Virus record (IMG/VR): IMGVR_UViG_2698536640_000025
From: a virus
Taxonomy: Duplodnaviria; Heunggongvirae; Uroviricota; Caudoviricetes
DNA: 38,686 nucleotides
Direction: 5' to 3' (one strand)
The number at the start of each line of letters is the position of its first letter. Positions within the stretch are counted from its first letter, which is position 1. Position numbers and translations under genes: made by a program. The notes beneath the pieces are model-generated. The model did not search any database and was not told the DNA's origin. It worked only from the letters and a program-made list of their open reading frames with translations. Of this stretch, positions 1,644-37,200 are shown piece by piece.

Positions 1644-1985
1644 TTAGCCAGCATTGCGACGAGATCGGGGTGATTTTTGGGTAATGCCGATTGAAACCTG
1701 ATCGCCCTCCGACTGAATGGAGCCATCAAGAGAGAGAGCCGGGGCAACCTGCCCGGCAGCGGGAAATGTTTTGTCGTGAAGTATCCACATAGTGTATTTT
1801 TCGAATCGCTCGACTTGGATTACTTTTTCTACAACCTCAATTCGCGCAGGTTTATATCCAGACTCATAATTTCCTATAGTTCCTACAGAAACTCCCGTTA
1901 CTTGCGAAAACTGAGATTGTGTAAGGTTTTCCGCGTTTCTGATTGCCTTTAGTTTTTTGGCGTAATCTCTTGACATGTTCACCAT
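1644..1985 (-). CDS. Immunity repressor, P2 C-type (XRE-family HTH)
   Basis: About 113 aa; HTH segment LTQSQFSQVTGVSVGTIGNYESG; divergent from the cox-like gene as in P2; GAGGA Shine-Dalgarno upstream of the ATG at about 1985 (alternative ATG at about 1976). Confidence 0.7.
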   Translation of the reverse strand: MVNMSRDYAKKLKAIRNAENLTQSQFSQVTGVSVGTIGNYESGYKPARIEVVEKVIQVERFEKYTMWILHDKTFPAAGQVAPALSLDGSIQSEGDQVSIGITQKSPRSRRNAG

Positions 1986-4852: not shown

Positions 4853-5080
4853 ATGGTCGCCATCCTGAATGTGTGTTGCTGCCCCCCCCTGAACGTGGAA
4901 AGAAAAGCCCGCGCATCGCTGCGTTTATTCCGCGACGGCGTGCGGAATTTTTCACGCATAAAACCCCACGACTACCTGGTAATAAGAATCGGTTTTCGCT
5001 GGCGATTGCTGAGCAAAAACAACGGGGCGTCATGGGATTTATTAACGCACGAAACCTATAACAAAGAGGCCGCGTTATGA
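4853..5080 (+). CDS. Hypothetical small protein (75 aa)
   Basis: ORF track; GAGGTGA RBS; ATGA overlap with the dam start; unusual composition. Confidence 0.3.
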   Translation: MVAILNVCCCPPLNVERKARASLRLFRDGVRNFSRIKPHDYLVIRIGFRWRLLSKNNGASWDLLTHETYNKEAAL

Positions 5081-6049: not shown

Positions 6050-6400
6050 ATGGCAGTGATTTATATCGCCGGTCCCATGACCGGATGCAAAGACCACAAC
6101 AGGACGGCATTTTGCGTGGAGGACCTGAAACTTCGGTGCGCCGGAAACATCGTTCTTAATCCTGCCGTACTGCCTGACGGATTAAGCCAGCAGCAGTACA
6201 TGAGCATTTGTATTCCGATGCTCATGTGTGCCGATGCCATTTACTTACTGGAAGGCTGGGTGGATTCAGCTGGCGCGCGGGCGGAGTACGTAATGGCACT
6301 CAAACTGAACATGCCAGTGTCATTCCCGGAAAACCGGGCAGCCGGAGAAACCATCGCGCAGCTGCTTCACAAATCAAAAGCCGCACAGGCGACTGAGTAA
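6050..6400 (+). CDS. DUF4406-like protein (nucleoside 2-deoxyribosyltransferase-like fold)
   Basis: N-terminus MAVIYIAGPMTG typical of the DUF4406 family common in P2-like prophages. Confidence 0.65.
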   Translation: MAVIYIAGPMTGCKDHNRTAFCVEDLKLRCAGNIVLNPAVLPDGLSQQQYMSICIPMLMCADAIYLLEGWVDSAGARAEYVMALKLNMPVSFPENRAAGETIAQLLHKSKAAQATE

Positions 6401-6838
6401 CCGACCGGAGATCGAAACATGATTGCGCGAAGAGCTGCCAACCGCCTCACAGGCTTTATTCCAGGCAAGGTTGATCATGCACTCCATCACGGGGCTGTCA
6501 CTTTCCTCAACAAAGGAGAGGCGCGCAATCATGCATTCCGGAGTGAGCACGTGGCGCTGGCTAATCAGTCTTTGATAGCTAAGCGCCTGCCATTCAGCCT
6601 TTTCAGCTCTGATAGAAAGAGAGGCAGCCATGACCTGCCACACCAGAAAGAGCACCACACTGGCGAAAACAAACGTTGCGCTGTCGCAAAAAATGAATGC
6701 GGCAACAATCGCAAGGAAAGCGCTAATCCTCAGAACCAAGGAAGCGCGACGGTGGAGAAGGCTTGTCATGTGTTCAAGCCAGTAGCTGTACCACAGGTCA
6801 AAAAGAATTTCGTAATCAGAAGGGAGCTTATCACTCAT
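6374..6838 (-). CDS. Membrane protein (about 154 aa, two predicted TM helices) encoded antisense to the early operon
   Basis: Track ORF 6374..7021; internal ATG start MSDKLPSDYEIL...; hydrophobic segments LVLRISAFLAIVAAFIF and ATFVFASVVLFLVWQVMAA; 3' end overlaps DUF4406 by about 27 nt. Confidence 0.5.
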   Translation of the reverse strand: MSDKLPSDYEILFDLWYSYWLEHMTSLLHRRASLVLRISAFLAIVAAFIFCDSATFVFASVVLFLVWQVMAASLSIRAEKAEWQALSYQRLISQRHVLTPECMIARLSFVEESDSPVMECMINLAWNKACEAVGSSSRNHVSISGRLLSRLCGF

Positions 6839-7221
6839 CAGAAACACCCCGCGTATGCAGACAATCACCAGTTGCCAGGTGATATTAATTCGCCACATTC
6901 TAACCACATCAGCACGCAACACAAAAACCGCTTGCCAGCGCTCGTCGTGTCGGGTTACATTTCCGCTGCACCTCATAAAACGGGTGCCGGGATTTCCACC
7001 CTGCTGACTAGCAAAGCGCACTACCGCGCCAGCGGTTTTTTTGTGCGTACTGTATTGCCACGTTTTTTTCGCATCAGAATTATGGCGGGGCGTACGGGGC
7101 CGACTTCGGTCGGGCCGGGTTCTTTGCTAGCCGGTTGTGGAAACCCTGTACGTCTCGCCACCCCGAGTTTTCCACCTCCGGTTGGTGAGTTTTCAAAACT
7201 TACTAGCAAAGAGGCCACACC

Positions 7222-7443
7222 ATGGCAAACCGCAAGCAACAGCGCGCCCGCGCTGAGCGTCTTCACATCCGCAGCGAAATCAACCGCAGACTTTTCCGCG
7301 CAACACGCGTCGCGCAAATCATGCATATCAACATGCTGCATGAGCGCACGCACGCACTATCAAACCGTTACTGCGCTGCCGTCTTCAGCTATCTGGCCGA
7401 AGACCTGGCAGAACTGCAAAGCCTCATCAACCAGCACCGATAA
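7222..7443 (+). CDS. Hypothetical basic protein (73 aa)
   Basis: ORF track; AAAGAGG RBS; arginine-rich N-terminus. Confidence 0.45.
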   Translation: MANRKQQRARAERLHIRSEINRRLFRATRVAQIMHINMLHERTHALSNRYCAAVFSYLAEDLAELQSLINQHR

Positions 7444-7511
7444 ACCACATCCGGAAGCTATCCCACACCTGCACGCGGGAGGCTTCCGCACATCTGTTAC
7501 CGGAGGTTCTC

Positions 7512-7928
7512 ATGAAGAGCGTTAAGGGACTTTCAGATATTCAGGACTTCTTTAACTGGATGTGGGCGGTGGATCCCCTGCTGGCTTCCCGCCTGAACAA
7601 CTGGCACGACTATTACCGCCGCGCCTGTAAACAGGCCGCCCGCAGCATCACCACATACGGGGATTTCTCCTTCACCGTTGACGGTCGTTACCGCGTGGAC
7701 GTGAAAGGTGACGGTGATGGCTTTGGTTTATTTCACATCAACGGCACCGACAGTACCGCCATCAGCTGGTCATCGTCAGAGATGGCACTGGTTCTGGAAA
7801 TGACAACCCACAGCGTGGCCGTGAAAGGCATATACACCGCAGAAGACTTTATCGGTGAATACCAGCGCCTTCTCGTGCTGTACCGCGCGGCGTTTCAGGA
7901 GGTCACTGGCGGGGAGTACGACGCATGA
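7512..7928 (+). CDS. Hypothetical protein (138 aa) immediately upstream of gpA
   Basis: ORF track; stop overlaps the gpA start (ATGA). Confidence 0.5.
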   Translation: MKSVKGLSDIQDFFNWMWAVDPLLASRLNNWHDYYRRACKQAARSITTYGDFSFTVDGRYRVDVKGDGDGFGLFHINGTDSTAISWSSSEMALVLEMTTHSVAVKGIYTAEDFIGEYQRLLVLYRAAFQEVTGGEYDA

Positions 7929-10438
7929 GTGACCGCAATGCACAGCTGGCGTACCCGTGGAACGCACCGCTACCGGTTATCGATCCTGAAACGTTCGGCA
8001 GAGCACAACCAACCGCATTACGCCAGGCCATTCAGAGCTACATCAACGAGGACATTCGCATTGATGCCAGACTGGATGAAGAAACCGTCTCCTTCCTGAC
8101 AAACACAGACGAAGGCAAGCGAATTAATTCGCATCTTCACCACGACGAAGAGCGTCGGGTCAGACTGGAAAAACTGGCGAAGCACAAACGCGAGAATCCG
8201 CCCACGGTGGTATCGGAAGCCATGGCAGAACTTCGCGCCCTGCCCTCGTTTCTTGGCAACGTGCTCATTCGTGATCTGGCGCGTTTAAACCGCAAACAAC
8301 AAAGCGCCCGCAATGAAGGCGTGAAAAACAACAACACTCACGTGGCCGATAACTTCGTTCGCCGTGGACTGCGCACACGCCTGAAACGCATCGAACAGGT
8401 GAATGAATGCTTCGCCACGACGGCATTCAAAGCCACCGCAGCGCGTCATCGCCTTGATGAATTACTCATGCTGCCACAACTCAACCGTGATCAAATTCAG
8501 CGCCTTGCCACACTAACGGCGGCGGCATTTTCCACCGAACTGGAACGCATATGTGATGAAGTTACTGAGCGGACAGGAAAAGGCGACGATAACCTGTTTA
8601 CCTGGTTGCTGACTTACCAGCAGCTGGCGCGCATGGCAATAAAACTGGGCGTGAACCCACCATACTGGCCGTCACTCGAGATCAGACGTGACCGCCGCAC
8701 GGCACCAGACCCTGAACGGGTACCGGGCGCGGTAATGCGTATCACCTGCGCCACCTGGTGGAACAACCAGCTGCGCCACCTCGCTGATCTCTGGCGGGAG
8801 GAATTACTGCGTGCCGCCGGAAGAGTATCGCGCAAGGCATCCCCCTACATCAGCCATGAGTCACTCCAGGAATTCCGGGAGAAACGCCAGCGCACCCGTG
8901 ATTTTCTCAAAAGCTGGGACATTGAAAACGAAGACGGTGAACGCCTGAGCCTGGAGGACGTGTACTGGTCAGGGCTGGGGAATCCGCGCAACCGCCGCAA
9001 CGAGATGATGGCCTGCGTCAGAGGGATGGAACAGGTCGCCGAATCGCGTGGTGACTCCGCGTTCTTCGTGACAGTGACCTGCCCTTCCCGCTTTCACAGC
9101 GTAAACGAGGACGGCAGCCTGAACCAGAAATACAACGGTGCCACCGTGCGCGATGCCAGTGATTATCTGGTTTACGACGTCTTTGCAGCTGCAAGAAAAA
9201 AACTCAACAAAGAAGGCCTGAGCTGGTACGGGGTGCGCACCGTTGAGCCACACCATGACGGCACACCGCACTGGCACATGCTGGTATTCACCGCCCCGGA
9301 CAATGAAGAACGCATCATTGAAATCATGCGTGACGCAGCAATCAAATCAGATCGCGCAGAACTGGGGAATGATATTTCTCCGCGCTTCAAGTGCGAAAAA
9401 ATCGACCCGGCAAAAGGCACACCGGCAAGCTACATCGCAACCTATATTGGCAAGAACCTGGACGCCAGCACCTTTCACGACAATGACCCGAAAACCGGCA
9501 AACCTTACGCCGATAAAGAATCGGGAAAAACCATGGCGGAAACCGTGGAAAACGCCATTGCCTGGGCGAGTCTCCACCGCATCCGGCAGTTCCAGTTCTT
9601 CGGTATCCCGCCCCGCCAGGTATGGCGTGAACTCCGCCGCCTTGCCGGACAAATGGAGCGTAACCCCGCATCACCGAAGCGCCTGGACCATGACGACATT
9701 GACGCCATTCTGGCCGCCGCTGACGTGGGGTGTTTTGCCACCTACATCAACCGTCAGGGCGGCGTGCTCATTCCACGCAACCTGTACCTGATCCGCACCG
9801 CATACGAAACCGCAGATGAGGCCAACGACTACGGCGAATTCCCGCAGCGCATCTACGGAATTTGTGCCCCGTCGCTCGGCGAGCGCTACACCATCTGCAC
9901 CCATCCGGACGAGTGGAAACTGGTCAGAAAAGAAGCGAAAGCCGACAACAGCACGGACGAGGATTTTGACGTTGGGGGCGGCTTCGCCGCACCTTGGACT
10001 CGTGGCAATAACTGTCCCCATGATGAAAAAACAGACACCGGAGAGGGTAAAACCCCACCACCGGAAACCAGGAAAGAACAAAAACTGACCATCCCGGAAG
10101 GTGATTTGAGCGAATGGTTAAGGTCACTGACCCCCACAGAGAGAAAACAACTCACCAGGCAGCTGAAAGATGCGCCATCTGACACAAAAACCGTGAAAAC
10201 CGGCGGCCCCACCACGCCCGATGACGTCATACATGTGCGTACAGCATTGCCGCTGACTGACGTCACCACCACCGTAATCAAGTCGGCACTGAGCACGACG
10301 GGCGAGGAGCTACACAGTGGCGCAGCACTTTCCGTACACAGAGGTGCACGCGTTCGCCTGCCTGACGGGCGGATTGTGCACTGGGATGAAAAATCACGAA
10401 GCCTGGTGGCAGCAGATCAACCGGAGGTTAACCCATGA
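7925..10438 (+). CDS. A: Replication initiation endonuclease, P2 gpA family (rolling-circle initiator)
   Basis: 837 aa; HUH-type metal-binding motif HHDGTPHWHMLVF and tyrosine motif YIATYIGKNLD; position matches P2 gene A. Confidence 0.9.
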   Translation: MSDRNAQLAYPWNAPLPVIDPETFGRAQPTALRQAIQSYINEDIRIDARLDEETVSFLTNTDEGKRINSHLHHDEERRVRLEKLAKHKRENPPTVVSEAMAELRALPSFLGNVLIRDLARLNRKQQSARNEGVKNNNTHVADNFVRRGLRTRLKRIEQVNECFATTAFKATAARHRLDELLMLPQLNRDQIQRLATLTAAAFSTELERICDEVTERTGKGDDNLFTWLLTYQQLARMAIKLGVNPPYWPSLEIRRDRRTAPDPERVPGAVMRITCATWWNNQLRHLADLWREELLRAAGRVSRKASPYISHESLQEFREKRQRTRDFLKSWDIENEDGERLSLEDVYWSGLGNPRNRRNEMMACVRGMEQVAESRGDSAFFVTVTCPSRFHSVNEDGSLNQKYNGATVRDASDYLVYDVFAAARKKLNKEGLSWYGVRTVEPHHDGTPHWHMLVFTAPDNEERIIEIMRDAAIKSDRAELGNDISPRFKCEKIDPAKGTPASYIATYIGKNLDASTFHDNDPKTGKPYADKESGKTMAETVENAIAWASLHRIRQFQFFGIPPRQVWRELRRLAGQMERNPASPKRLDHDDIDAILAAADVGCFATYINRQGGVLIPRNLYLIRTAYETADEANDYGEFPQRIYGICAPSLGERYTICTHPDEWKLVRKEAKADNSTDEDFDVGGGFAAPWTRGNNCPHDEKTDTGEGKTPPPETRKEQKLTIPEGDLSEWLRSLTPTERKQLTRQLKDAPSDTKTVKTGGPTTPDDVIHVRTALPLTDVTTTVIKSALSTTGEELHSGAALSVHRGARVRLPDGRIVHWDEKSRSLVAADQPEVNP

Positions 10439-11753: not shown

Positions 11754-11793
11754 GTTACCCTCAGCAGCGAGGGTAACACAGGATTTCTTTTTT
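11754..11793 (+). terminator. Rho-independent terminator closing the early operon (stem GTTACCCTC/GAGGGTAAC, then a T-tract)
   Basis: Perfect 9-bp stem with 6-nt loop followed by TTTCTTTTTT, read directly. Confidence 0.55.
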
Positions 11794-12329
11794 CAGTCAA
11801 ACCGAAATCGGCCGCTTGTCGCGTATGCATAGGTGACCACCGCACCCAGCGCATTCACACGCTTCTTCACATAAATCACATTACCATCCTGATAGTCACC
11901 GTATGGGTAGCAAATAAAGATTGTTTTTTGCAAATCAGGATCATCAACAAATGCCCCTGAACAACTTTTTGAGCTACCGCGACTGTACTCATAGGGAGCG
12001 GAATAGAATGAATCTTCACCCGGAAGAAAATATATCAGCGTAACCAGGAGGGTAAACAGAATCATCCAGGTAAGAAGGCACATACCCGAAAAAAACTTAA
12101 GATACGATGTAACCCCGGTAAATTTAGACCGATCAACCAGGTTCTTTTTCAACAGGCACAGTGAGACAAAAACCGAAAGCACCACAGACACTGAAACAAG
12201 GCAGTTTGTCGTGAACGAATAAAGGTAGGTAATTCTGTAAACATCGTTTCGCCACCAAATAAAAAGAAAAATCCCCCCCAAAACAGAAAGCGTGACAAAA
12301 GTTAAATAAGGATATGAGTAATTTTTCAC
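11793..12329 (-). CDS. AT-rich accessory gene: membrane protein with three predicted TM helices and an 80-aa C-terminal domain (about 178 aa; track ORF extends to 12437)
   Basis: Hydrophobic segments LTFVTLSVLGGIFLFIWW, LVSVSVVLSVFVSLCLL, MCLLTWMILFTLLVTLIYFL; GTG start with GGTGAG RBS proposed at about 12329; strongly AT-rich relative to neighbours; lies at the P2 tin/old position. Confidence 0.55.
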   Translation of the reverse strand: MKNYSYPYLTFVTLSVLGGIFLFIWWRNDVYRITYLYSFTTNCLVSVSVVLSVFVSLCLLKKNLVDRSKFTGVTSYLKFFSGMCLLTWMILFTLLVTLIYFLPGEDSFYSAPYEYSRGSSKSCSGAFVDDPDLQKTIFICYPYGDYQDGNVIYVKKRVNALGAVVTYAYATSGRFRFD

Positions 12330-12874: not shown

Positions 12875-13378
12875 ATGAGCCATTTTCGCGATTTGTACCT
12901 GGCAAACAAAAAGAGCCGGGACGCGAGGCGGGAGGTTACAGGGATTCTGCGCAATCAGGCTGAAAAGCTGGTTGCTTTTTATGAGCAGTGGCTGGAATTG
13001 CCTTCAGAGACATGGGAAGACAAAGACGGCGAGCATCATCGTTACGTTGATACGGGGTTTCCGTGCAGAAACGATCGGGACTTCAGGCCATTTCCGGTAA
13101 ATATGATTGCAACCGACACAGATAACATATTCCGGATGGCTGTAAGAACATGGGTTGACTCACACGATGAAGGAGAGTCGGTAAACATAGTCCTGGCAAT
13201 GGAGTTACATTCCGTCGGAAAAGACGGTGTATCTCTTCGGGTTCGCGTGGAAGATGATACCTCCATTCGCGTGGTCATCAACGGAGACGGTGACAGGGAA
13301 TGGCTGCCGATAGTAAACAGTATGAAGATGCATATTATCAGCAAGCTGCAAAGAAGAACGCCATCCGCATTCCGTTAA
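12875..13378 (+). CDS. Accessory hotspot gene: uncharacterised soluble protein (167 aa)
   Basis: ATG with strong AAGGAG RBS; promoter-like TTGCGC-17-CAGAAT upstream; no recognisable motif; between the replication module and the portal gene. Confidence 0.6.
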   Translation: MSHFRDLYLANKKSRDARREVTGILRNQAEKLVAFYEQWLELPSETWEDKDGEHHRYVDTGFPCRNDRDFRPFPVNMIATDTDNIFRMAVRTWVDSHDEGESVNIVLAMELHSVGKDGVSLRVRVEDDTSIRVVINGDGDREWLPIVNSMKMHIISKLQRRTPSAFR

Positions 13379-14492: not shown

Positions 14493-16241
14493 TCAGAACT
14501 CCATTGCAAAGCCGCGATTATCCTCACGCTCCGCACCAATTGGCTCATTGATAACAGCAAGCATGGTTGCCCAGGCGAGGTCACCATGGCTGACGCCACG
14601 GGAGCGGTCGGTGTCGTAGGTGATATAGCCGCCGGGTGTCTGTATTTTTCGCACCGATGCGAATGCCTGGATCAGGTCACGTTCACTGCGGTCATACTCC
14701 CAGCGTCCGGCACGCACCACCTGAAGCATTTTCATGACCAGTGCCCGCTTGGAGGCGATATTGAAGTTGTACGGTACGGCCATCGGGAAAAACTTTTTCA
14801 CAATCTGATAAACCCCCTCCCCGTTCCCGCCGGTCACATCAATGCCGATATGTTTCACGTTATATTTTTGGGTGTATTCCTCAATCAGTGCGGCCTGCTG
14901 TTCAAACTCCATCCCCTGAACCCTGACAGTTTCCACCGTGCGAAAACGCCCACCGGCAACAAGGGGCGGCACGCACACCGACAGTGCCCCGCAGTCCCCC
15001 TTCCCGCTGCTGCCGTTGGCGTCATACCCAAGCCAGACCTCCCTCACCCCCATAGGGCGGGCAGCAAAAGGTTTCCAGTCAGGCCATTCGTCATAGCCGT
15101 CAACACCGCAGCCGGTGAGCGCACTCAGGCTGAAGGCTGCCTCACCATCACGGACAAATTCGCACATGTACAGATTACGAAATTCACTTTCTGTATTTTC
15201 GCCGCGAATAACACCAATATTGGTGTACCGCCATCCGTTAGCGACAGCATCCTCAATAGTGACAATCTGCCGCCATGTTTCGTCAGGAAAGAGCACGCCC
15301 CCCTTCAGATGCGCATGTGAAACATCAAACTCACTGCGTTTTGAGCGTGGCTGTTCGCTGTTCCAGCGGTCCCCCGTCCAGAACTGATACGCCTCATGTG
15401 TTTCACCTGACGGTGTTGAAAAGTAGGTTCGCGTAAGCCCTTCCAGTGTCGCCATTGCCCCAGCAACCTTCCTGAGTTCCACAAAGTTACTGACCCAGAA
15501 AAATTCATCAAATTTAAGGTGTCCGGTATACGACTGAGCGGTTGCTGCCGATGTGCCAAGGAAGTGAAGCTCTGCACCGTTAGACAAAACAATCTTGTCA
15601 CCCCCTTTCAGTTCGACATCAACTTCCAGCGCCGCCTGCTGAATAAAGTGTTTGAACTGATACGCCTGGCGACGGGATGCGGACAAAAATATCTGGTTGC
15701 GCTGGTACCCGGCGGAGACATCATCACGCAGTGCATCAAGGAGTGCTTCGCGCGCAAAATACCAGGTCGCACCAATCTGACGCGACTTCAGGATCATGCG
15801 GTTGCGGTGATGGCGGTTGTCGTACCATTCGCGCTGATGCCAGGCCAGTGACGGCAGGATTTTTTCCCTGAGTGCGACAATCTGCTCTTCGGTGAAGTGA
15901 TTTTTCAGTTTGCGCCTGCGGGGCTTCTTACCGGAAACAGCCTGTTCTCCCTGACCGTCATTCAGTTTTTTCAGCTGGCGCGTCAGCAGGTCAATTTCCT
16001 TAAAGTCACCGCCGCTTTTATCCGGTTTGGCGGTGAGCTGTATCAGGCGTGCATCAATGGACTGGGTGACCCGCTGGATCGGGGGAGTGGCATCCCACTC
16101 ATCGCGTTTTTTCCACGAATAAATCGTGTTCTGGTTTATTCCCATCAGCTGAGCGATATCCGCCGGGGTATACCCCTGCCAGTAAAGCTGTTTCGCCCGC
16201 ATACGAATAAAGACATCCTGGATCATTGCACCCCCTGACAT
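14493..16241 (-). CDS. P: Terminase large (ATPase) subunit, P2 gpP family
   Basis: Track ORF 14493..16331; internal ATG start proposed near 16241 (or 16226); divergent from O as in P2. Confidence 0.9.
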   Translation of the reverse strand: MSGGAMIQDVFIRMRAKQLYWQGYTPADIAQLMGINQNTIYSWKKRDEWDATPPIQRVTQSIDARLIQLTAKPDKSGGDFKEIDLLTRQLKKLNDGQGEQAVSGKKPRRRKLKNHFTEEQIVALREKILPSLAWHQREWYDNRHHRNRMILKSRQIGATWYFAREALLDALRDDVSAGYQRNQIFLSASRRQAYQFKHFIQQAALEVDVELKGGDKIVLSNGAELHFLGTSAATAQSYTGHLKFDEFFWVSNFVELRKVAGAMATLEGLTRTYFSTPSGETHEAYQFWTGDRWNSEQPRSKRSEFDVSHAHLKGGVLFPDETWRQIVTIEDAVANGWRYTNIGVIRGENTESEFRNLYMCEFVRDGEAAFSLSALTGCGVDGYDEWPDWKPFAARPMGVREVWLGYDANGSSGKGDCGALSVCVPPLVAGGRFRTVETVRVQGMEFEQQAALIEEYTQKYNVKHIGIDVTGGNGEGVYQIVKKFFPMAVPYNFNIASKRALVMKMLQVVRAGRWEYDRSERDLIQAFASVRKIQTPGGYITYDTDRSRGVSHGDLAWATMLAVINEPIGAEREDNRGFAMEF

Positions 16242-21329: not shown

Positions 21330-21339
21330 CGGAGTCACT

Positions 21340-23385
21340 ATGGTACCGAAACATTATCAGCTTGTGACGGCAATGACGAACAAGGAACTTGCCGAAAAAC
21401 TTGCGCCCATGCTCAGGGAAGGATGGGGACTTCTTGGGGGACCTGTCTCAGCATCAGAGCCGGGAGCACCATTTTACCTGATGCAGGCACTGGTCACTGA
21501 CAGAGACCTGCCATCAGCCATTCCGGTACCAGAAGGCGAGGAAAACCCCGTACCGGGCACTACCGACGGATACGACACTGGACACACAACTGAGCCAGAG
21601 TTTTATTATGTGGTGCCACTGGCTGGTCAGTCCAATGGCATGGCATACGGTGAGGGGCTGCCATTACCCGATACATTCGACAGTCCTGATCCACGAATTA
21701 AACAGTTAGCGCGTCGCAGTACGGTAACACCGGGCGGCGCTGCATGTACCTATAACGATATTATTCCGGCAGATCACTGTCTCCATGATGTACAGGATAT
21801 GAGCAGCCTTAATCATCCGAACGCCGATCTGTCAAAAGGTCAGTATGGCTGCGTCGGACAGGGTTTACATATTGCCAAAAAATTACTGGCGTTTATCCCG
21901 AAAAATGCAGGGATCCTCCTGGTACCTTGCTGTCGTGGAGGGTCAGCGCTTACTTCCGGCGCTGAGGGGGCATTCAGTGAATCTTCAGGAGCAACGGCCG
22001 AATCATCCCTGTGGGGCGTCGGCAAACCGCTGTATAACGATCTGCTTACCCGTACAAAAGCCGCGCTGGATAAAAACCCCAAAAACGTCCTGTTATCCGT
22101 GGTCTGGATGCTGGGAGAGTTTGATCTGAAATCAGCAACATACGCACAGCACCCGCAATTATTCCTGAACATGGTGAATCAGTTCCGCGCCGATCTCAGC
22201 GCATATGCTGCACAGTGCACCGGAGGCAACGCATCACTTGTTCCCTGGATTTGCGGCGATACCACCTATATCTGGAAACAACAATATACCTCTCAGTACC
22301 CGGTGGTTTACGGTGCATATCAGAACAAAGAAGCGCAAAAAATTTATTTTGTGCCCCTGATGACCGATGAGAAAGGTGCTAACACGCCAACAAACCTGCC
22401 TGCCGAAGATCCTGACCTGGCAGAAGCCGGTTATTACGGTGCTGCATCCCGTAGTAACGGAAACTGGACCTCTTCAGATCGCGCCACGCATTTCAGTTCA
22501 TGGGCCCGCCGCGGCATTATTTCTGACCGCCTGGCAACGGCGATCCTGATGCATGCCGGGAAGACCGTCGCCTTCCTGAAAGGTGCACCCGCACCGTTCA
22601 GCGTGGTCGCAGTACCTCCCGCCACGGCCGGTTCAGACAGCACCACCACGGAAAGCCCGCAGCCCTACACACCTGCACCTCAGCCGGGCGCAGGTACGCA
22701 GTCATCACCGGCAAGAACAACGGCCGTCGCTTATCGCGCAGACGCACAGGAAGGGAAACTGAAAGAACAGGGCTGGACAGGGGCAGATGGAAAAGCCTCC
22801 GTCGTAAATGACTCTGCTGCTGAGAGCGGTAAAGCCATGCGAGTGGAAAAAGTCCAGGGGCAACAAACAGCCTGGAAAATCGCCCACGATGTGCCTGCAA
22901 GTAAAGCAGCTGAATTACTTCAGAAAGGCGGGGAAATTGCCTTTCGTTTCAAAATCCCGGAAGGTGTTCAGCTGGCAGAAAACCGCTTCGCCATGGCTCT
23001 GCACTGGCCGGTTTCTCAGCTACCTGAAAACGTTGTTCTGGAAGGCAGCGCAGGAAACGATATGCTGGCCGCCTTCTTCATCCAGAGCGACAGCGCAAAC
23101 CTGAATCTGATGCAGCACAAACAACAGAATGCAAAACTGGGAACCTTCGGGGCATTTAATCATAACTGGCACAACGTGGTGTTCCGGTTTGCCGGAAATA
23201 ACAGCATCAGCGTGACACCGGTCATCAACGGTCAGACCCAGGCGGCCTTTAATCTGGCGAAATGCCCGGCGGCAGGACTGGATAACGACAAACTGCTGAT
23301 CACGGATATCACCAGTAACAAGGACACCTACCCCGTGCTGATTGAGTATGTGACGGTGGATATCAATAACAGCAACGCCGCATAA
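21340..23385 (+). CDS. Putative NanS-p-like sialate O-acetylesterase (DUF1737-like N-terminus, SGNH/SASA esterase domain, Pro/Thr-rich linker, C-terminal carbohydrate-binding-like domain); moron gene
   Basis: GQSNG block-I esterase motif (PLAGQSNGMAYGEG); N-terminal HYQLVTAMTNKELAEKLAPMLREGWGLLG; linker PPATAGSDSTTTESPQPYTPAPQP; GGAG RBS; occupies the gap between lysC and R that is empty in P2. Confidence 0.65.
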   Translation: MVPKHYQLVTAMTNKELAEKLAPMLREGWGLLGGPVSASEPGAPFYLMQALVTDRDLPSAIPVPEGEENPVPGTTDGYDTGHTTEPEFYYVVPLAGQSNGMAYGEGLPLPDTFDSPDPRIKQLARRSTVTPGGAACTYNDIIPADHCLHDVQDMSSLNHPNADLSKGQYGCVGQGLHIAKKLLAFIPKNAGILLVPCCRGGSALTSGAEGAFSESSGATAESSLWGVGKPLYNDLLTRTKAALDKNPKNVLLSVVWMLGEFDLKSATYAQHPQLFLNMVNQFRADLSAYAAQCTGGNASLVPWICGDTTYIWKQQYTSQYPVVYGAYQNKEAQKIYFVPLMTDEKGANTPTNLPAEDPDLAEAGYYGAASRSNGNWTSSDRATHFSSWARRGIISDRLATAILMHAGKTVAFLKGAPAPFSVVAVPPATAGSDSTTTESPQPYTPAPQPGAGTQSSPARTTAVAYRADAQEGKLKEQGWTGADGKASVVNDSAAESGKAMRVEKVQGQQTAWKIAHDVPASKAAELLQKGGEIAFRFKIPEGVQLAENRFAMALHWPVSQLPENVVLEGSAGNDMLAAFFIQSDSANLNLMQHKQQNAKLGTFGAFNHNWHNVVFRFAGNNSISVTPVINGQTQAAFNLAKCPAAGLDNDKLLITDITSNKDTYPVLIEYVTVDINNSNAA

Positions 23386-27255: not shown

Positions 27256-28595
27256 TGATGGCCGCAAAATACAAAACCATTATCACAAATGCCGGCACAG
27301 CAGCCCTCGCAGCTGCGGTGTTACCGGATGGAGAAAAGATCACGCTGACACATATCGCCGTCGGAGACGGTAACGGTAAACCCACAGAACCACTGGCCAC
27401 GCAAACCGCTCTCGTTAAAGAGGTCTGGCGGGGCGAGGTCAGCAGGGTCAGCCGTGACGCGGAAAACACCAGTTTTTTAACCGCCGAAGTGATCATTCCT
27501 GCGAATGAAGGAGGATTCTGGATCCGCGAAATCGGTCTGTTTGACAGCAAAGGCACACTCATCGCCGTGGGTAATGTTGCGGAAGGTTACAAACCGCAGC
27601 TTGATGAGGGCTCAGGCAGAGAACAGGTATTCCGCATGGTGATTCTGCTGAGCAACGAAGCCTCTGTAAATCTGACAGCCGACTCATCAACCACCATGGC
27701 AACACAGGCTGGCGTGGCAGAAATGATAAAGCAGCATGAACAAAACGGTAAACACCCGGATGCCACAACCACCAGTAAAGGATTTACTCAGCTCAGTAGT
27801 GAAACCGACAGTGATGATGAAACCCGGGCAGCCACACCCAAAGCAATAAAAGCACTTAAGGCGCTGACAGTAACAAGACCAACAGCCCCCCTCGCCGTGG
27901 ATCTGAATACACTGGGGAGACCTGAACATCATGGTGACTACTATCAGCCCAACAACAACGGCGCCACTACAGCACATCACTACCCGGTAACATCAGCCGG
28001 ATCATTATCCATCAGGATGGGCGCATGGGGATTCTGCCAGCAGGAATACACCGCCTGGAATCCACCACGAAAATTTATCCGGACAGTGACAGGTAACTTC
28101 ACCGGCAACGGGCCATGGTCTGAATGGAAGGAGGTTGCCATACTCCCCCTCACGCAGACCGGCGACGCCTCCCTGACAGAGCGAGGTATTGTTCAGCTAA
28201 GCAGCGCAACGGACAGTGACAGTGAAGTGCTGGCTGCCACACCAAAAGCTGTGAAGACGGCCATGACGGCAGCAGAAAACGCCGGGCAGAAAGCACGGCA
28301 AGCACTGGAGGCTGCACAGGCAAAAACACAGCGGACACTCTGGGATGTGGGCAGCTTTATTCTGGCGGCAACGGATGCCGAAGGGGAGTGGCCAGCCAAA
28401 ATTGATATAACGGCCGGAAACACCCGCCCGGGCAGTAAACTCAGACTGATAAGCCTGACTCATTCCGAAGGCAACTTCGGCCCCCGTGAATCCATGCAAA
28501 ACTGGAACACAAACCGCAGGCCACCGGGCACGTGGCGGGCCTGCGCTGACATTTATGCAGGCGCAGGAATCGGAATATTTGAGCGCATTGCCTGA
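27255..28595 (+). CDS. H: Tail fibre protein, P2 gpH family (446 aa; shorter than P2 gpH, divergent C-terminus)
   Basis: Conserved N-terminus MMAAKYKTIITNAGTAALAAAV...; two copies of the fibre motif GxxQLSSxTDSDxExxAATPKAxK. Confidence 0.8.
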   Translation: MMAAKYKTIITNAGTAALAAAVLPDGEKITLTHIAVGDGNGKPTEPLATQTALVKEVWRGEVSRVSRDAENTSFLTAEVIIPANEGGFWIREIGLFDSKGTLIAVGNVAEGYKPQLDEGSGREQVFRMVILLSNEASVNLTADSSTTMATQAGVAEMIKQHEQNGKHPDATTTSKGFTQLSSETDSDDETRAATPKAIKALKALTVTRPTAPLAVDLNTLGRPEHHGDYYQPNNNGATTAHHYPVTSAGSLSIRMGAWGFCQQEYTAWNPPRKFIRTVTGNFTGNGPWSEWKEVAILPLTQTGDASLTERGIVQLSSATDSDSEVLAATPKAVKTAMTAAENAGQKARQALEAAQAKTQRTLWDVGSFILAATDAEGEWPAKIDITAGNTRPGSKLRLISLTHSEGNFGPRESMQNWNTNRRPPGTWRACADIYAGAGIGIFERIA

Positions 28596-36406: not shown

Positions 36407-36726
36407 CGGCTGGAAGGAAAACCTGAAGGCCGGATGTGGAAAGGCCCCGAGTCAAACATATTGTTTAACCCGAGGCCCTAACCATTCCTACCCTAGACAA
36501 GTGGAAGGTTAGCGCCTCCCTGTAAAAGGAGTCAAGCGCTATGCCGCAAAAAACGATCATCGTGAGCATTTTATGCTTAACCATGTTGTTGGCCATCTGG
36601 ATGATACACCGTTCGCCGTGTGAGTTCAGACTTAACATCATGTGGTCAGAATTTGCGGCGTTCTTGCAGTGTAAACAGTAAGAAACCGCAGCGGGGGTGA
36701 AAGCCCCCGCTATCCGGTTGTCGGGT
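36381..36726. repeat. Tandem direct repeat copy 1 (about 346 bp), a hok/sok-like type I toxin-antitoxin locus
   Basis: About 85 percent identical to copy 2 over its length; period about 477 bp; contains a hok-like ORF and a GC stem-loop after it. Confidence 0.8.
36541..36681 (+). CDS. Hok/Gef-family membrane toxin (46 aa, MPQKTIIVSILCLTMLLAIWMIHRSPCEFRLNIMWSEFAAFLQCKQ)
   Basis: Single TM followed by a CE(F/I)R...EFAAF pattern typical of the Hok family; AAGGAG RBS. Confidence 0.7.
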   Translation: MPQKTIIVSILCLTMLLAIWMIHRSPCEFRLNIMWSEFAAFLQCKQ

Positions 36727-36762
36727 TCAGTCGATATGGCACCCCTTTCTCCATTGGATTAC

Positions 36763-36786
36763 AGACGTATTTGCCCGCAATATGCG
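36763..36786 (+). terminator. Rho-independent terminator after hok-like locus 1 (GCCCGCA-ata-TGCGGGC + T6)
   Basis: Read directly. Confidence 0.6.
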
Positions 36787-36857
36787 GGCTTTTTTGCCGC
36801 CCTCCCCCTAAACAGTTTCAACACTGAGCATTGCGCGCACAAAGGGAAATCAGTAGA

Positions 36858-37200
36858 TTACACGTGGGTGCCTTTCGGCTGACGGCTGGAAGGATTACCT
36901 GAAGGCCGGATGTGAAAAGGCCCCGAGTCAAACATTTGTTTAACCCGAGGCCCTAACCATCTAACCTTCGCAAGTGGAAGGTTAGCGCCTCTCCAACAAA
37001 GGAGCAAGCGCTATGTCGCAAAAATCGCTTATGGCCATCACGTTCTGCGTGACGGCAATCCTCATCATCTGGATGTTACATGGTTCGCTGTGTGAAATAC
37101 GGATGAACATCTGGGGAGCGGAGTTTGCGGCGTTCTTACAGTGTAAGCAGTAAGGAAACCGCGACGGGGGAGTAATCCCCCGTCAATCGGTTGTCAGGGT
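36858..37200. repeat. Tandem direct repeat copy 2 (about 343 bp), hok/sok-like locus
   Basis: Matches copy 1 with scattered substitutions. Confidence 0.8.
37013..37153 (+). CDS. Hok/Gef-family membrane toxin (46 aa, MSQKSLMAITFCVTAILIIWMLHGSLCEIRMNIWGAEFAAFLQCKQ)
   Basis: SLCEIR and EFAAF motifs as in Hok; AAGGAG RBS. Confidence 0.75.
   Translation: MSQKSLMAITFCVTAILIIWMLHGSLCEIRMNIWGAEFAAFLQCKQ

Follow-up and report, generated by a model that had tools for sequence, protein, structure and literature searches.

A putative two-RNA immunity switch and an opposing membrane-protein gene in the early operon of a P2-like Escherichia coli prophage

The 38,686-nt stretch of DNA analysed here (IMG/VR record IMGVR_UViG_2698536640_000025, hereafter the window) is found, letter for letter, in the chromosome of Escherichia coli STEC2018-607 (NZ_CP075697.1) and covers an entire P2-like prophage. 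Within the rightward early operon of this prophage, the interval 6374..7221 holds an open reading frame (ORF) directed against the operon and, upstream of that ORF, a long stretch of apparently non-coding DNA. A sequence-only reading had taken the two together, as a membrane-protein gene provided with its own control region of about 380 bp and typical of a moron such as a superinfection-exclusion gene, or of a regulatory RNA locus. The question raised by the locus is whether the interval is one unit. That description was confirmed in part, and its interpretation was supported in part: the sequence features are real but belong to two separate and unrelated units which the interpretation had joined. 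It is highly probable that these are an RNA-based secondary immunity switch on the plus strand (6932..7443), which includes the next gene of the operon, and a membrane cargo cassette on the minus strand (6374..~6927), arranged back to back and independent of each other.

A two-RNA module upstream of the anti-repressor gene

An Rfam scan of the whole window returned exactly two matches, both on the plus strand of this interval and both above the gathering threshold. The upstream one, at 6968..7042, was to the small RNA IsrK (RF01394, 58.9 bits against a gathering threshold of 50), the equivalent of P4 seqA, and the downstream one, at 7078..7165, was to the C4 antisense RNA (RF01695, 80.3 bits against 45, E 2.4e-14), the equivalent of the P4 CI RNA. 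The C4 match starts 35 nt downstream of IsrK and covers positions 1-87 of the 87 in the model. Its layout comprises a long closing stem, hairpin 1 (7098..7116), the loop of hairpin 2 (7120..7130, designated b') and a junction (7137..7143, designated a'), and the minimum free energy fold reproduced this structure. Hairpin 1 is the GC hairpin GGCCGACttcgGTCGGGCC already picked out from the letters. No protein-coding evidence turned up in 6839..7221, in line with its description as non-coding. The proposal of a regulatory RNA locus was correct in that RNAs are present, but they lie on the opposite strand and have a different target than had been implied.

A promoter-like site identified by consensus scanning (TTGCCA-18-TACATT, sigma-70-like, 6932..6961, plus strand) ends 7 nt before the Rfam start of IsrK and could serve both IsrK and a read-through transcript. 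The same site was present in the P88-type prophage locus L092, and both hexamers were invariant or nearly so in 53 aligned modules. An intrinsic terminator was predicted at the end of IsrK (7023..7042, plus strand). A second candidate promoter directly before C4 (7055..7083) was not relied on, since over half the relatives have TCGCCA at its -35, and no LexA box was found by eye near the IsrK promoter in the window sequence. It was also observed that the IsrK terminator (7028..7044) is 88% complementary to the 17 nt at 6919..6935, which overlap the -35 hexamer of that RNA's promoter; on the minus strand, the pairing would give a weak terminator-like element just upstream of the putative promoter of the membrane gene.

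The module leads into a gene at 7222..7443 (plus strand) for a 73-aa derepression protein, recognised as a homologue of the P4 epsilon anti-repressor by Pfam (PF25738 Derepression, 28.2 bits against a cut-off of 27), by BLASTP against P4 epsilon (32% identity over 50 aa, E 8e-8) and by PHROG 3688 (E 7e-39). Judged from the sequence, this anti-repressor appears to be the regulated output of the RNA module. The candidate C4 target in its leader (7169..7214, plus strand) is composed of the sites a2 (7169..7175) and b2 (7203..7213), and the Shine-Dalgarno (SD) sequence GAGG (7211..7214) is placed 8 nt before the ATG at 7222, with three of its four bases covered by b2. Complementarity to C4 also defined two sites in IsrK, a1 in the loop of hairpin 2 (6993..6999) and b1 in the linker (7008..7016). 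The predicted pairing of C4 with the leader joins b' to b2 and a' to a2 (11 + 7 pairs), and that of C4 with IsrK joins b' to b1 and a' to a1 (9 + 7 pairs), the latter being possible because IsrK carries a second copy of the target sites.

The true direct repeats of the interval are TTTCCAC (6993..6999 and 7169..7175) and CTAGCAAAG (7008..7016 and 7203..7211), both complementary to C4. In an unbiased repeat search they were recovered as 6987..7000 with 7163..7176 and 7004..7016 with 7199..7211, together with four inverted pairings tying these direct repeats to 7120..7146. The direct repeats that had been proposed instead, CCGGTTGTGG (7131..7140) and CCGGTTGGTG (7178..7187), did not hold up, as they have just 7 exact bases in common, which is not above chance, and the second copy, reading CTGGATGGTG in most relatives, is not conserved. 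The first of these decamers corresponds to the 3' arm of C4 hairpin 2 and the adjoining junction.

Conservation of the pairing was followed in 80 IMG/VR loci encoding the anti-repressor, plus E. coli, Salmonella and phage loci; IMG/VR was used in place of a scan of genome contigs for the anti-repressor, which gave just two loci. The 53-54 distinct modules aligned share a nearly invariant scaffold, and most variation falls within the six patches, while the promoter spacer and the DNA separating IsrK from C4 each contain smaller variable stretches. Seven types of a', 16 types of b' and 25 combinations were distinguished. Between C4 and the leader, 97.2% of cells were paired, against 70.9% in shuffled sets and 52.7% in the best slid register, with 230 compensatory cells and changes on both sides in 10 of the 18 pairs. 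The corresponding values between C4 and IsrK were 99.4%, 68.8% and 51.7%, with 234 compensatory cells and both-side changes in 11 of the 16 pairs. In each comparison none of 500 shuffles reached the observed score. Since the modules are related to one another, this control makes the significance look greater than it is, a weakness that affects neither the slid-register control nor the many independent type combinations. We regard the three-way pairing of C4, IsrK and the leader as established at the level of sequence evidence.

Some modules of unusual build were encountered. Two complete tandem IsrK-C4 modules of different pairing types are present in E. coli G1/2 (NZ_CP060083; locus L005, 2169..3394), the first (a TTTCCAC, b CAAACGAAG) leading into a truncated derepression gene, the second (a TTCGCAG, b CTAGCAAAG) into a full one. 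In IMG/VR UViG_2582580934_000004 (locus L087, 83..405) C4 hairpin 2 is duplicated, and its two b' loops, ATTCTTTGCTCT and GTTCTTGTGTAG, may confer dual specificity. Locus L015 (181..486) is a recombinant module, in which a1 and b1 mismatch the C4 patches of their own module (longest runs of 4 and 5 pairs) although the downstream sites do match, and locus L028 has a deletion in a1.

The membrane-protein gene on the opposite strand

The minus-strand ORF occupies 6374..6838 (ATG at 6838..6836) and encodes 154 aa. It shares 27 nt with the 3' end of the DUF4406 gene (6050..6400); an overlap there had already been read from the sequence. It matched PHROG 6315 end to end (E 1.3e-65). Comparison of the window allele with alleles about 80% identical in protein gave a dN/dS of 0.21 in the minus frame, whereas the other five frames gave at least 0.47 and for the most part exceeded 1. 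Distant homologues (24-38% pairwise identity) were found in another P88-type prophage, in Fels-2 and in a Yersinia Firavirus, and among these the minus-frame proteins matched in all pairs at E 1e-12 to 1e-31. By these comparisons the ORF is to be regarded as a genuine gene under purifying selection.

Its probable 5' region (6839..6927, minus strand), read from the sequence and from comparison of alleles, contains a predicted -35-like TTGTGT (6924..6919), a 16-nt spacer, a -10 TAGAAT (6902..6897) and an SD-like GGGG (6850..6847); the consensus promoter scan did not flag this promoter. In the L092 allele, which is 38% identical, the -10 is TATAAT in place of TAGAAT, and the SD is GGAGG in place of GGGG at the same distance from the start. 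The start of the 154-aa protein was placed at 6838 because the family N-termini, and the SD-like element at the same distance in a divergent allele, agree with it. The model of the NCBI Prokaryotic Genome Annotation Pipeline (PGAP; WP_244495808.1), with 215 aa at 6374..7021, runs into IsrK and is probably over-extended. At the stop codon a terminator-like hairpin with a T-run was predicted (6369..6394, minus strand; stem 6394..6379, then TTTGATTTGT).

Two other accounts of the interval have to be weighed against this layout. According to one, the true early gene is the plus-strand ORF at 6419..7525 (368 aa), with the minus-strand ORF as its shadow. The frame is indeed open, and early-strand ORFs have been annotated over the homologous region in Fels-2 and in the Yersinia phage vB_YenM_42.18. 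However, dN/dS in this frame, whose conservation the sequence-only reading had named as an observation that would count against a minus-strand gene, was 1.1-1.2, and the early-strand ORFs over the same DNA in relatives have little or no similarity to one another (E 3.5e-7 to 57), in contrast to the minus-frame proteins. The 368-aa ORF would moreover cross two RNA genes and enter the anti-repressor gene, and its being the real gene can be given practically no credence. The other account makes the whole of 6839..7221 the promoter and 5' untranslated control region of the membrane gene, in keeping with its position upstream of the ORF, with the extension of the PGAP model to 7021 and with the putative -10 at 6902..6897. 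It is already contradicted and very improbable, as 6968..7165 is occupied by the two plus-strand Rfam RNAs, whose pairing partners are on the plus strand and co-vary, and as P88 and 66 of 82 related loci have the same module but no membrane gene. Megablast homology to the P88-type phages begins at about 6902, so that only ~65-130 nt can belong to the cassette. Of the control region of about 380 bp first ascribed to the membrane gene, the proximal ~130 bp (6839..6967) is the most that can be kept, the remainder being the plus-strand IsrK-C4 module.

In the window and in all eight further contexts with called genes, the membrane gene faces against the early lytic operon. The P2-like contexts are the P88-type prophages L092-L094 (three places), Fels-2, the Yersinia phage and an Erwinia P2-like prophage; the lambdoid ones are prophages of Pseudomonas and Citrobacter and one from a metagenome, and in the latter two the gene adjoins cI. 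Among the P88-like loci, 16 of 82 carry the gene, in three divergent alleles and always opposite to the early operon, and in 13 of these 16 it directly adjoins the IsrK promoter. It is absent from P88 and P2, and P88 has an SPFH gene at that site. The view of a moron-like insert was borne out by this distribution: the gene is moron-like cargo, whose own promoter and terminator are predicted. The site directly upstream of the IsrK promoter is accordingly the border between variable early cargo and a conserved immunity-replication block. The GC content of the cassette is slightly lower (0.48-0.52 against 0.55), and was dropped as a mark of it because the difference is too small to be diagnostic. 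As a head-on gene would be freely transcribed only while the early promoter is repressed, and would be opposed by lytic transcription, a function expressed in the lysogen seems likely, and the invariable antisense placement suggests that the function is limited to the lysogen.

Possible roles of the two units and their prophage setting

By analogy, the immunity switch would be of the P4/P1 type. Transcription from the constitutive-looking promoter would give IsrK, stopped at its own terminator, and read-through transcripts would carry the C4 RNA. Exposed b' and a' of C4 would then pair with b2 and a2 of the leader and occlude the SD of the epsilon-like gene; the anti-repressor would not be made, because its SD is occluded by C4 pairing, and the P2 C-type repressor would stay active. 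Since IsrK has a second copy of the target (a1, b1), its binding to C4, in cis or in trans, would shift the balance toward anti-repressor synthesis and derepression, while the specificity type would be set by the patch sequences, as in P1/P7 heteroimmunity. The RNA family membership, the complementarity and the covariation have been demonstrated here. Constitutive transcription, processing of C4 to a stable RNA with an RNase P 5' end and a translational block by occlusion of the ribosome-binding site (RBS) are suggested by the related systems, as are possible termination before gene A, the way in which IsrK would titrate or refold C4, and whether its effect is positive or negative. Binding and inactivation of a P2 C-type repressor by the 73-aa protein would fit, indirectly, with the repressor of this prophage (1644..1985, minus strand), which is a homologue of P2 C (36% identity, E 5e-22).

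Several points weigh against this scheme. The score for the Derepression family is barely above its cut-off, and the promoters of both units, like the ends of the RNAs and their processing, are predicted. The sequence cannot tell a translational block by C4 from termination, as in P4, or from a combination of both. The direction of the IsrK effect also varies, IsrK being an activator in Gifsy-1 (PMC4825925) and its counterpart being needed for immunity in P4.

As regards the membrane protein, the two transmembrane (TM) segments proposed earlier were seen as adjacent hydrophobic stretches at about aa 33-51 and 54-73, and hydropathy and AlphaFold2 agreed on two TM helices flanked by cytoplasmic helices. 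In the AlphaFold2 model (17-sequence alignment; predicted local distance difference test, pLDDT, 88.9; predicted template-modelling score, pTM, 0.80) helices span residues 8-50, 54-93, 100-111, 119-133 and 143-152, the two of about 40 residues forming a hairpin with a hydrophobic centre, followed by three short helices. Both termini of this putative inner-membrane protein are probably in the cytoplasm, since positive charges flank the cytoplasmic sides. The conserved residues (F13, Y17, E22, R31, Q84, Y88, D114-S115 and A125) map to the cytoplasmic portions of the protein, while the TM segments are variable. Only 21 clusters came out of an exhaustive HMMER search over 1.8 billion representatives, with lengths of ~150-200 aa except for three short or partial ones (76-91 aa) and one of 211 aa.

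Searches of Pfam, PADLOC and NCBIfam with the window protein gave nothing beyond a sub-threshold match to DUF6239, and it matched no model in these collections for known superinfection-exclusion or defence families (SieB, Old, Tin and the PADLOC set). PDB searches by sequence and by fold returned no informative solved structure, the matches being generic helical hairpins only. Signals for SLATT proteins, which are predicted pore-forming effectors usually found with a partner sensor (PMC9226505), came from other members of the family. NCBIfam SLATT_4 was matched by 9 of 20 members (best E 1.8e-4) and SLATT_1 by 3 of 20, all below threshold; three PADLOC models of the '2TM' effector of CBASS (cyclic-oligonucleotide-based antiphage signalling systems) were matched by 2, 1 and 1 members (best E 1.3e-4), and Pfam SLATT_4 (E 0.11) and SLATT_3 (E 0.64) by one member each. 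In a BFVD fold search 5 of the top 14 matches were annotated as SLATT, with weak E values of 0.009-0.1. As the window protein is unmatched and all hits are below the curated thresholds, the family is called SLATT-like here and is not filed as a member. No nucleotide-signal generator, SLOG or reverse transcriptase (RT) partner was found in the window or in the eight further contexts, nor any conserved neighbour whatever. A 161-aa neighbour in locus L099 was rejected as a paralogue or partner and is probably a spurious ORF. A literature search for STM2733/STM2734 found nothing specific.

We tentatively consider, with less than even confidence, that the membrane protein is a membrane-acting exclusion or abortive-infection effector protecting the lysogen. 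A narrower and rather unlikely proposal is that it represents a stand-alone, SLATT-like branch of pore-type effectors, carried head-on to the phage's own early operon in P2-like and lambdoid temperate phages and armed only in the lysogen. If true, convergent transcription would gate an exclusion or abortive-infection system made up of a single gene, with lytic transcription of its own prophage disarming the effector, and the conserved cytoplasmic helices would be a built-in sensor for what is elsewhere delegated to a partner enzyme. These proposals have to face that the window protein matches no SLATT model and no other member reaches a curated threshold, that the BFVD matches are weak and the PDB gave generic hairpins, that known SLATT effectors work with a partner sensor, of which none was found here, and that the prophage looks defective, so that any function of the gene may be vestigial.

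For each unit a different role must also be weighed. The two RNAs may act chiefly as in P4, where the CI RNA works via termination (PMC4825925, discussion; PMC3632133): C4 pairing would cause premature transcription termination and silence the replication gene A (7925..10438), and the module would then provide replication immunity, instead of or besides a translational brake on the anti-repressor. The gene order of IsrK, C4, epsilon-like gene, an ORF and the replication gene parallels the P4 order seqA-CI-...-epsilon-orf151-alpha. On the other hand, b2 directly overlaps the SD, the hallmark of a P1-type translational block, the scan flagged no intrinsic terminator on the plus strand between C4 and the gene at 7222, and the 138-aa ORF after the anti-repressor, tried as a homologue of P4 orf151, has no similarity to it. 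Predominant termination is a possibility we would hold below even chances, and the two modes are not exclusive. As for the membrane protein, it might not serve defence at all, and might be a regulator or anchor concerned with induction or lysis timing, or a toxin checked by the convergent early transcript in an addiction-like manner. The conserved cytoplasmic residues next to variable TM segments fit a protein-binding role, the gene overlaps the early operon head-on, and it adjoins the immunity switch in 13 of the 16 P88-like carrier loci, in the window and in L092-L094. However, it is far from any IsrK or C4 in Fels-2 and in the Yersinia, Erwinia and lambdoid contexts, which leaves it with no fixed partner, and the SLATT-like signals suggest an effector; a role of this kind is doubtful.

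The prophage encodes an integrase, the P2 C-type repressor and a Cox-like protein; its early operon runs rightward up to the gene for a gpA-type replication endonuclease (gene A), and P2-type virion genes are also present. Its closest named relatives are the P88-type phages (Xuanwuvirus, Peduoviridae). The large terminase subunit (~14493..16225) is marked as frameshifted by PGAP and the tail-fibre gene (~27257..28258) occurs only as fragments; the prophage is probably defective. Other features of the window are a 75-aa protein with a ParE-like toxin domain in the early operon (4853..5080, plus strand; Pfam PF24732, E 1e-17), with no obvious adjacent antitoxin, and two genes free of Pfam matches between the SSB and portal genes (11793..12329, minus strand, and 12875..13378, plus strand), which fall in the gpA-gpQ defence hotspot known from P2-like phages (PMC9122126). 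The lysis and tail genes are separated by an insert for a 681-aa DUF6645 protein (~21339..23384, plus strand), and two toxin genes of the Hok/Gef family adjoin serS at the right prophage end (~36540..37152).

Of 5,426 complete E. coli genomes, 1,900 had some IsrK-C4 match and 1,178 the full-length form, as seen ahead of the epsilon-like gene in the window; matches were often upstream of Rha-family regulators or in regions that PGAP names 'ash family protein'. With a 306-nt IsrK-C4 query, seven matching places were found in the NZ_CP075697.1 chromosome. A module of the P88 type from enterobacteria was also met on a 226-kb contig assigned to Vagococcus sp. WN89Y (NZ_JBQPOM010000071.1, locus L010), with an anti-repressor 76% identical; Vagococcus is Gram-positive, and this is probably contamination or a mislabelled assembly. 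Public records misannotate the interval, in that the two RNAs are unannotated and the PGAP membrane ORF is extended into IsrK. In P88 a probably spurious coding sequence (CDS) lies across IsrK and C4 (L002, 5033..5221), and the early-strand CDSs over the membrane gene in Fels-2 and the Yersinia phage vB_YenM_42.18 (L007, 3408..3812; L008, 3309..3974) are probably spurious too. The 25 patch combinations offer a natural test set for the diversification of RNA-based immunity types, and may also help to account for the inducibility of some P2-type prophages whose repressor cannot be cleaved. The membrane family, as one 154-codon gene, is a cheap experimental target.

Relation to known systems

The membrane protein resembles the SLATT 2TM effectors in its small size, its TM helical hairpin with cytoplasmic flanking helices and its presence in mobile DNA related to conflict. 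It differs in that the gene is always a lone one, opposing a phage early operon, without a partner sensor (cyclase, RT or SLOG). With the P2-like morons old, tin and fun it has in common that it is optional, oppositely oriented prophage cargo (PMC9122126), whereas there is no sequence relation and its site, upstream of gene A in the early operon, is outside the gpA-gpQ hotspot (PMC9122126).

IsrK and C4 are structural homologues of P4 seqA and CI in the seqA / CI RNA / seqC system (PMC3632133; PMC4825925). In P4 both Rfam families were matched upstream of epsilon, as here, and the order of sites is identical, with a1, b1, the RNA (b', a'), a2 and then b2-SD-ATG, followed by epsilon or its homologue and further on by a replication gene. 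Unlike P4, which is a satellite, the element described here is a P2-like phage with virion genes, that is, of the helper type. The occluded RBS here is that of the epsilon-like gene itself, 57 nt after C4, whereas the one occluded in P4 is that of the operon's first ORF, with epsilon lying ~245 nt downstream; the IsrK-C4 spacer is 35 nt here and ~108 nt in P4, and the 138-aa ORF here is unrelated to P4 orf151.

For the phages P1 and P7, Citron and Schuster are said to have described in 1990 a two-patch pairing of c4 that covers the RBS and controls the anti-repressor. The P1 c4 RNA blocks the anti-repressor Ant (PMC8198154), and the immI arrangement of P1 and P7 (c4 - icd - ant1/2) shares with the present module a C4-family RNA transcribed together with its target, the coverage of an RBS by pairing at two patches, and an anti-repressor as the controlled product (PMC8198154). 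The immunity type is set by patch sequence in both, with 25 type combinations in the modules aligned here. In contrast to P1 and P7, the anti-repressor here is a 73-aa epsilon-like protein and not Ant, there is no icd-like leader ORF, and no C1-type operator is evident at the promoter.

In the Salmonella prophage Gifsy-1, IsrK turns on anti-repressor translation and prophage induction in trans, and such activation, like Hfq binding by IsrK, is known for Gifsy-1 alone (PMC4825925). The Gifsy-1 arrangement isrK - orf45/STnc1160 - anrP is like the one here in having IsrK with its own promoter (and, in Gifsy-1, a leaky terminator), a read-through C4-like RNA and then the anti-repressor, and in both cases IsrK is complementary to the downstream RNA (PMC4825925). 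Gifsy-1 is lambdoid, however, its anti-repressor is unrelated, and coupling occurs through a 45-codon ORF for which no equivalent conserved ORF was seen here.

Among P2-like prophages, P88 has the IsrK-C4 module and P2 is without it, and a literature search for IsrK or C4 in P2-like phages found nothing specific. The closest precedent is the P2-like prophage Sp13 of O157 Sakai, in which a P4 epsilon-like gene was noted in 2009 and proposed to explain mitomycin inducibility in the presence of a repressor without a peptidase motif (PMC2669165). Sp13, known here from that paper alone, is the same kind of prophage, and the paper does not describe the IsrK and C4 RNAs; O157 genomes match the module at ~85% identity, with an annotated 'derepression protein'. 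Taken with these precedents, the RNA switch is a known kind of system and the membrane family is uncharacterised; the locus is well explained and of modest novelty, and what makes it interesting is that the pairing types come as a natural library and that the membrane family is consistently placed antisense.

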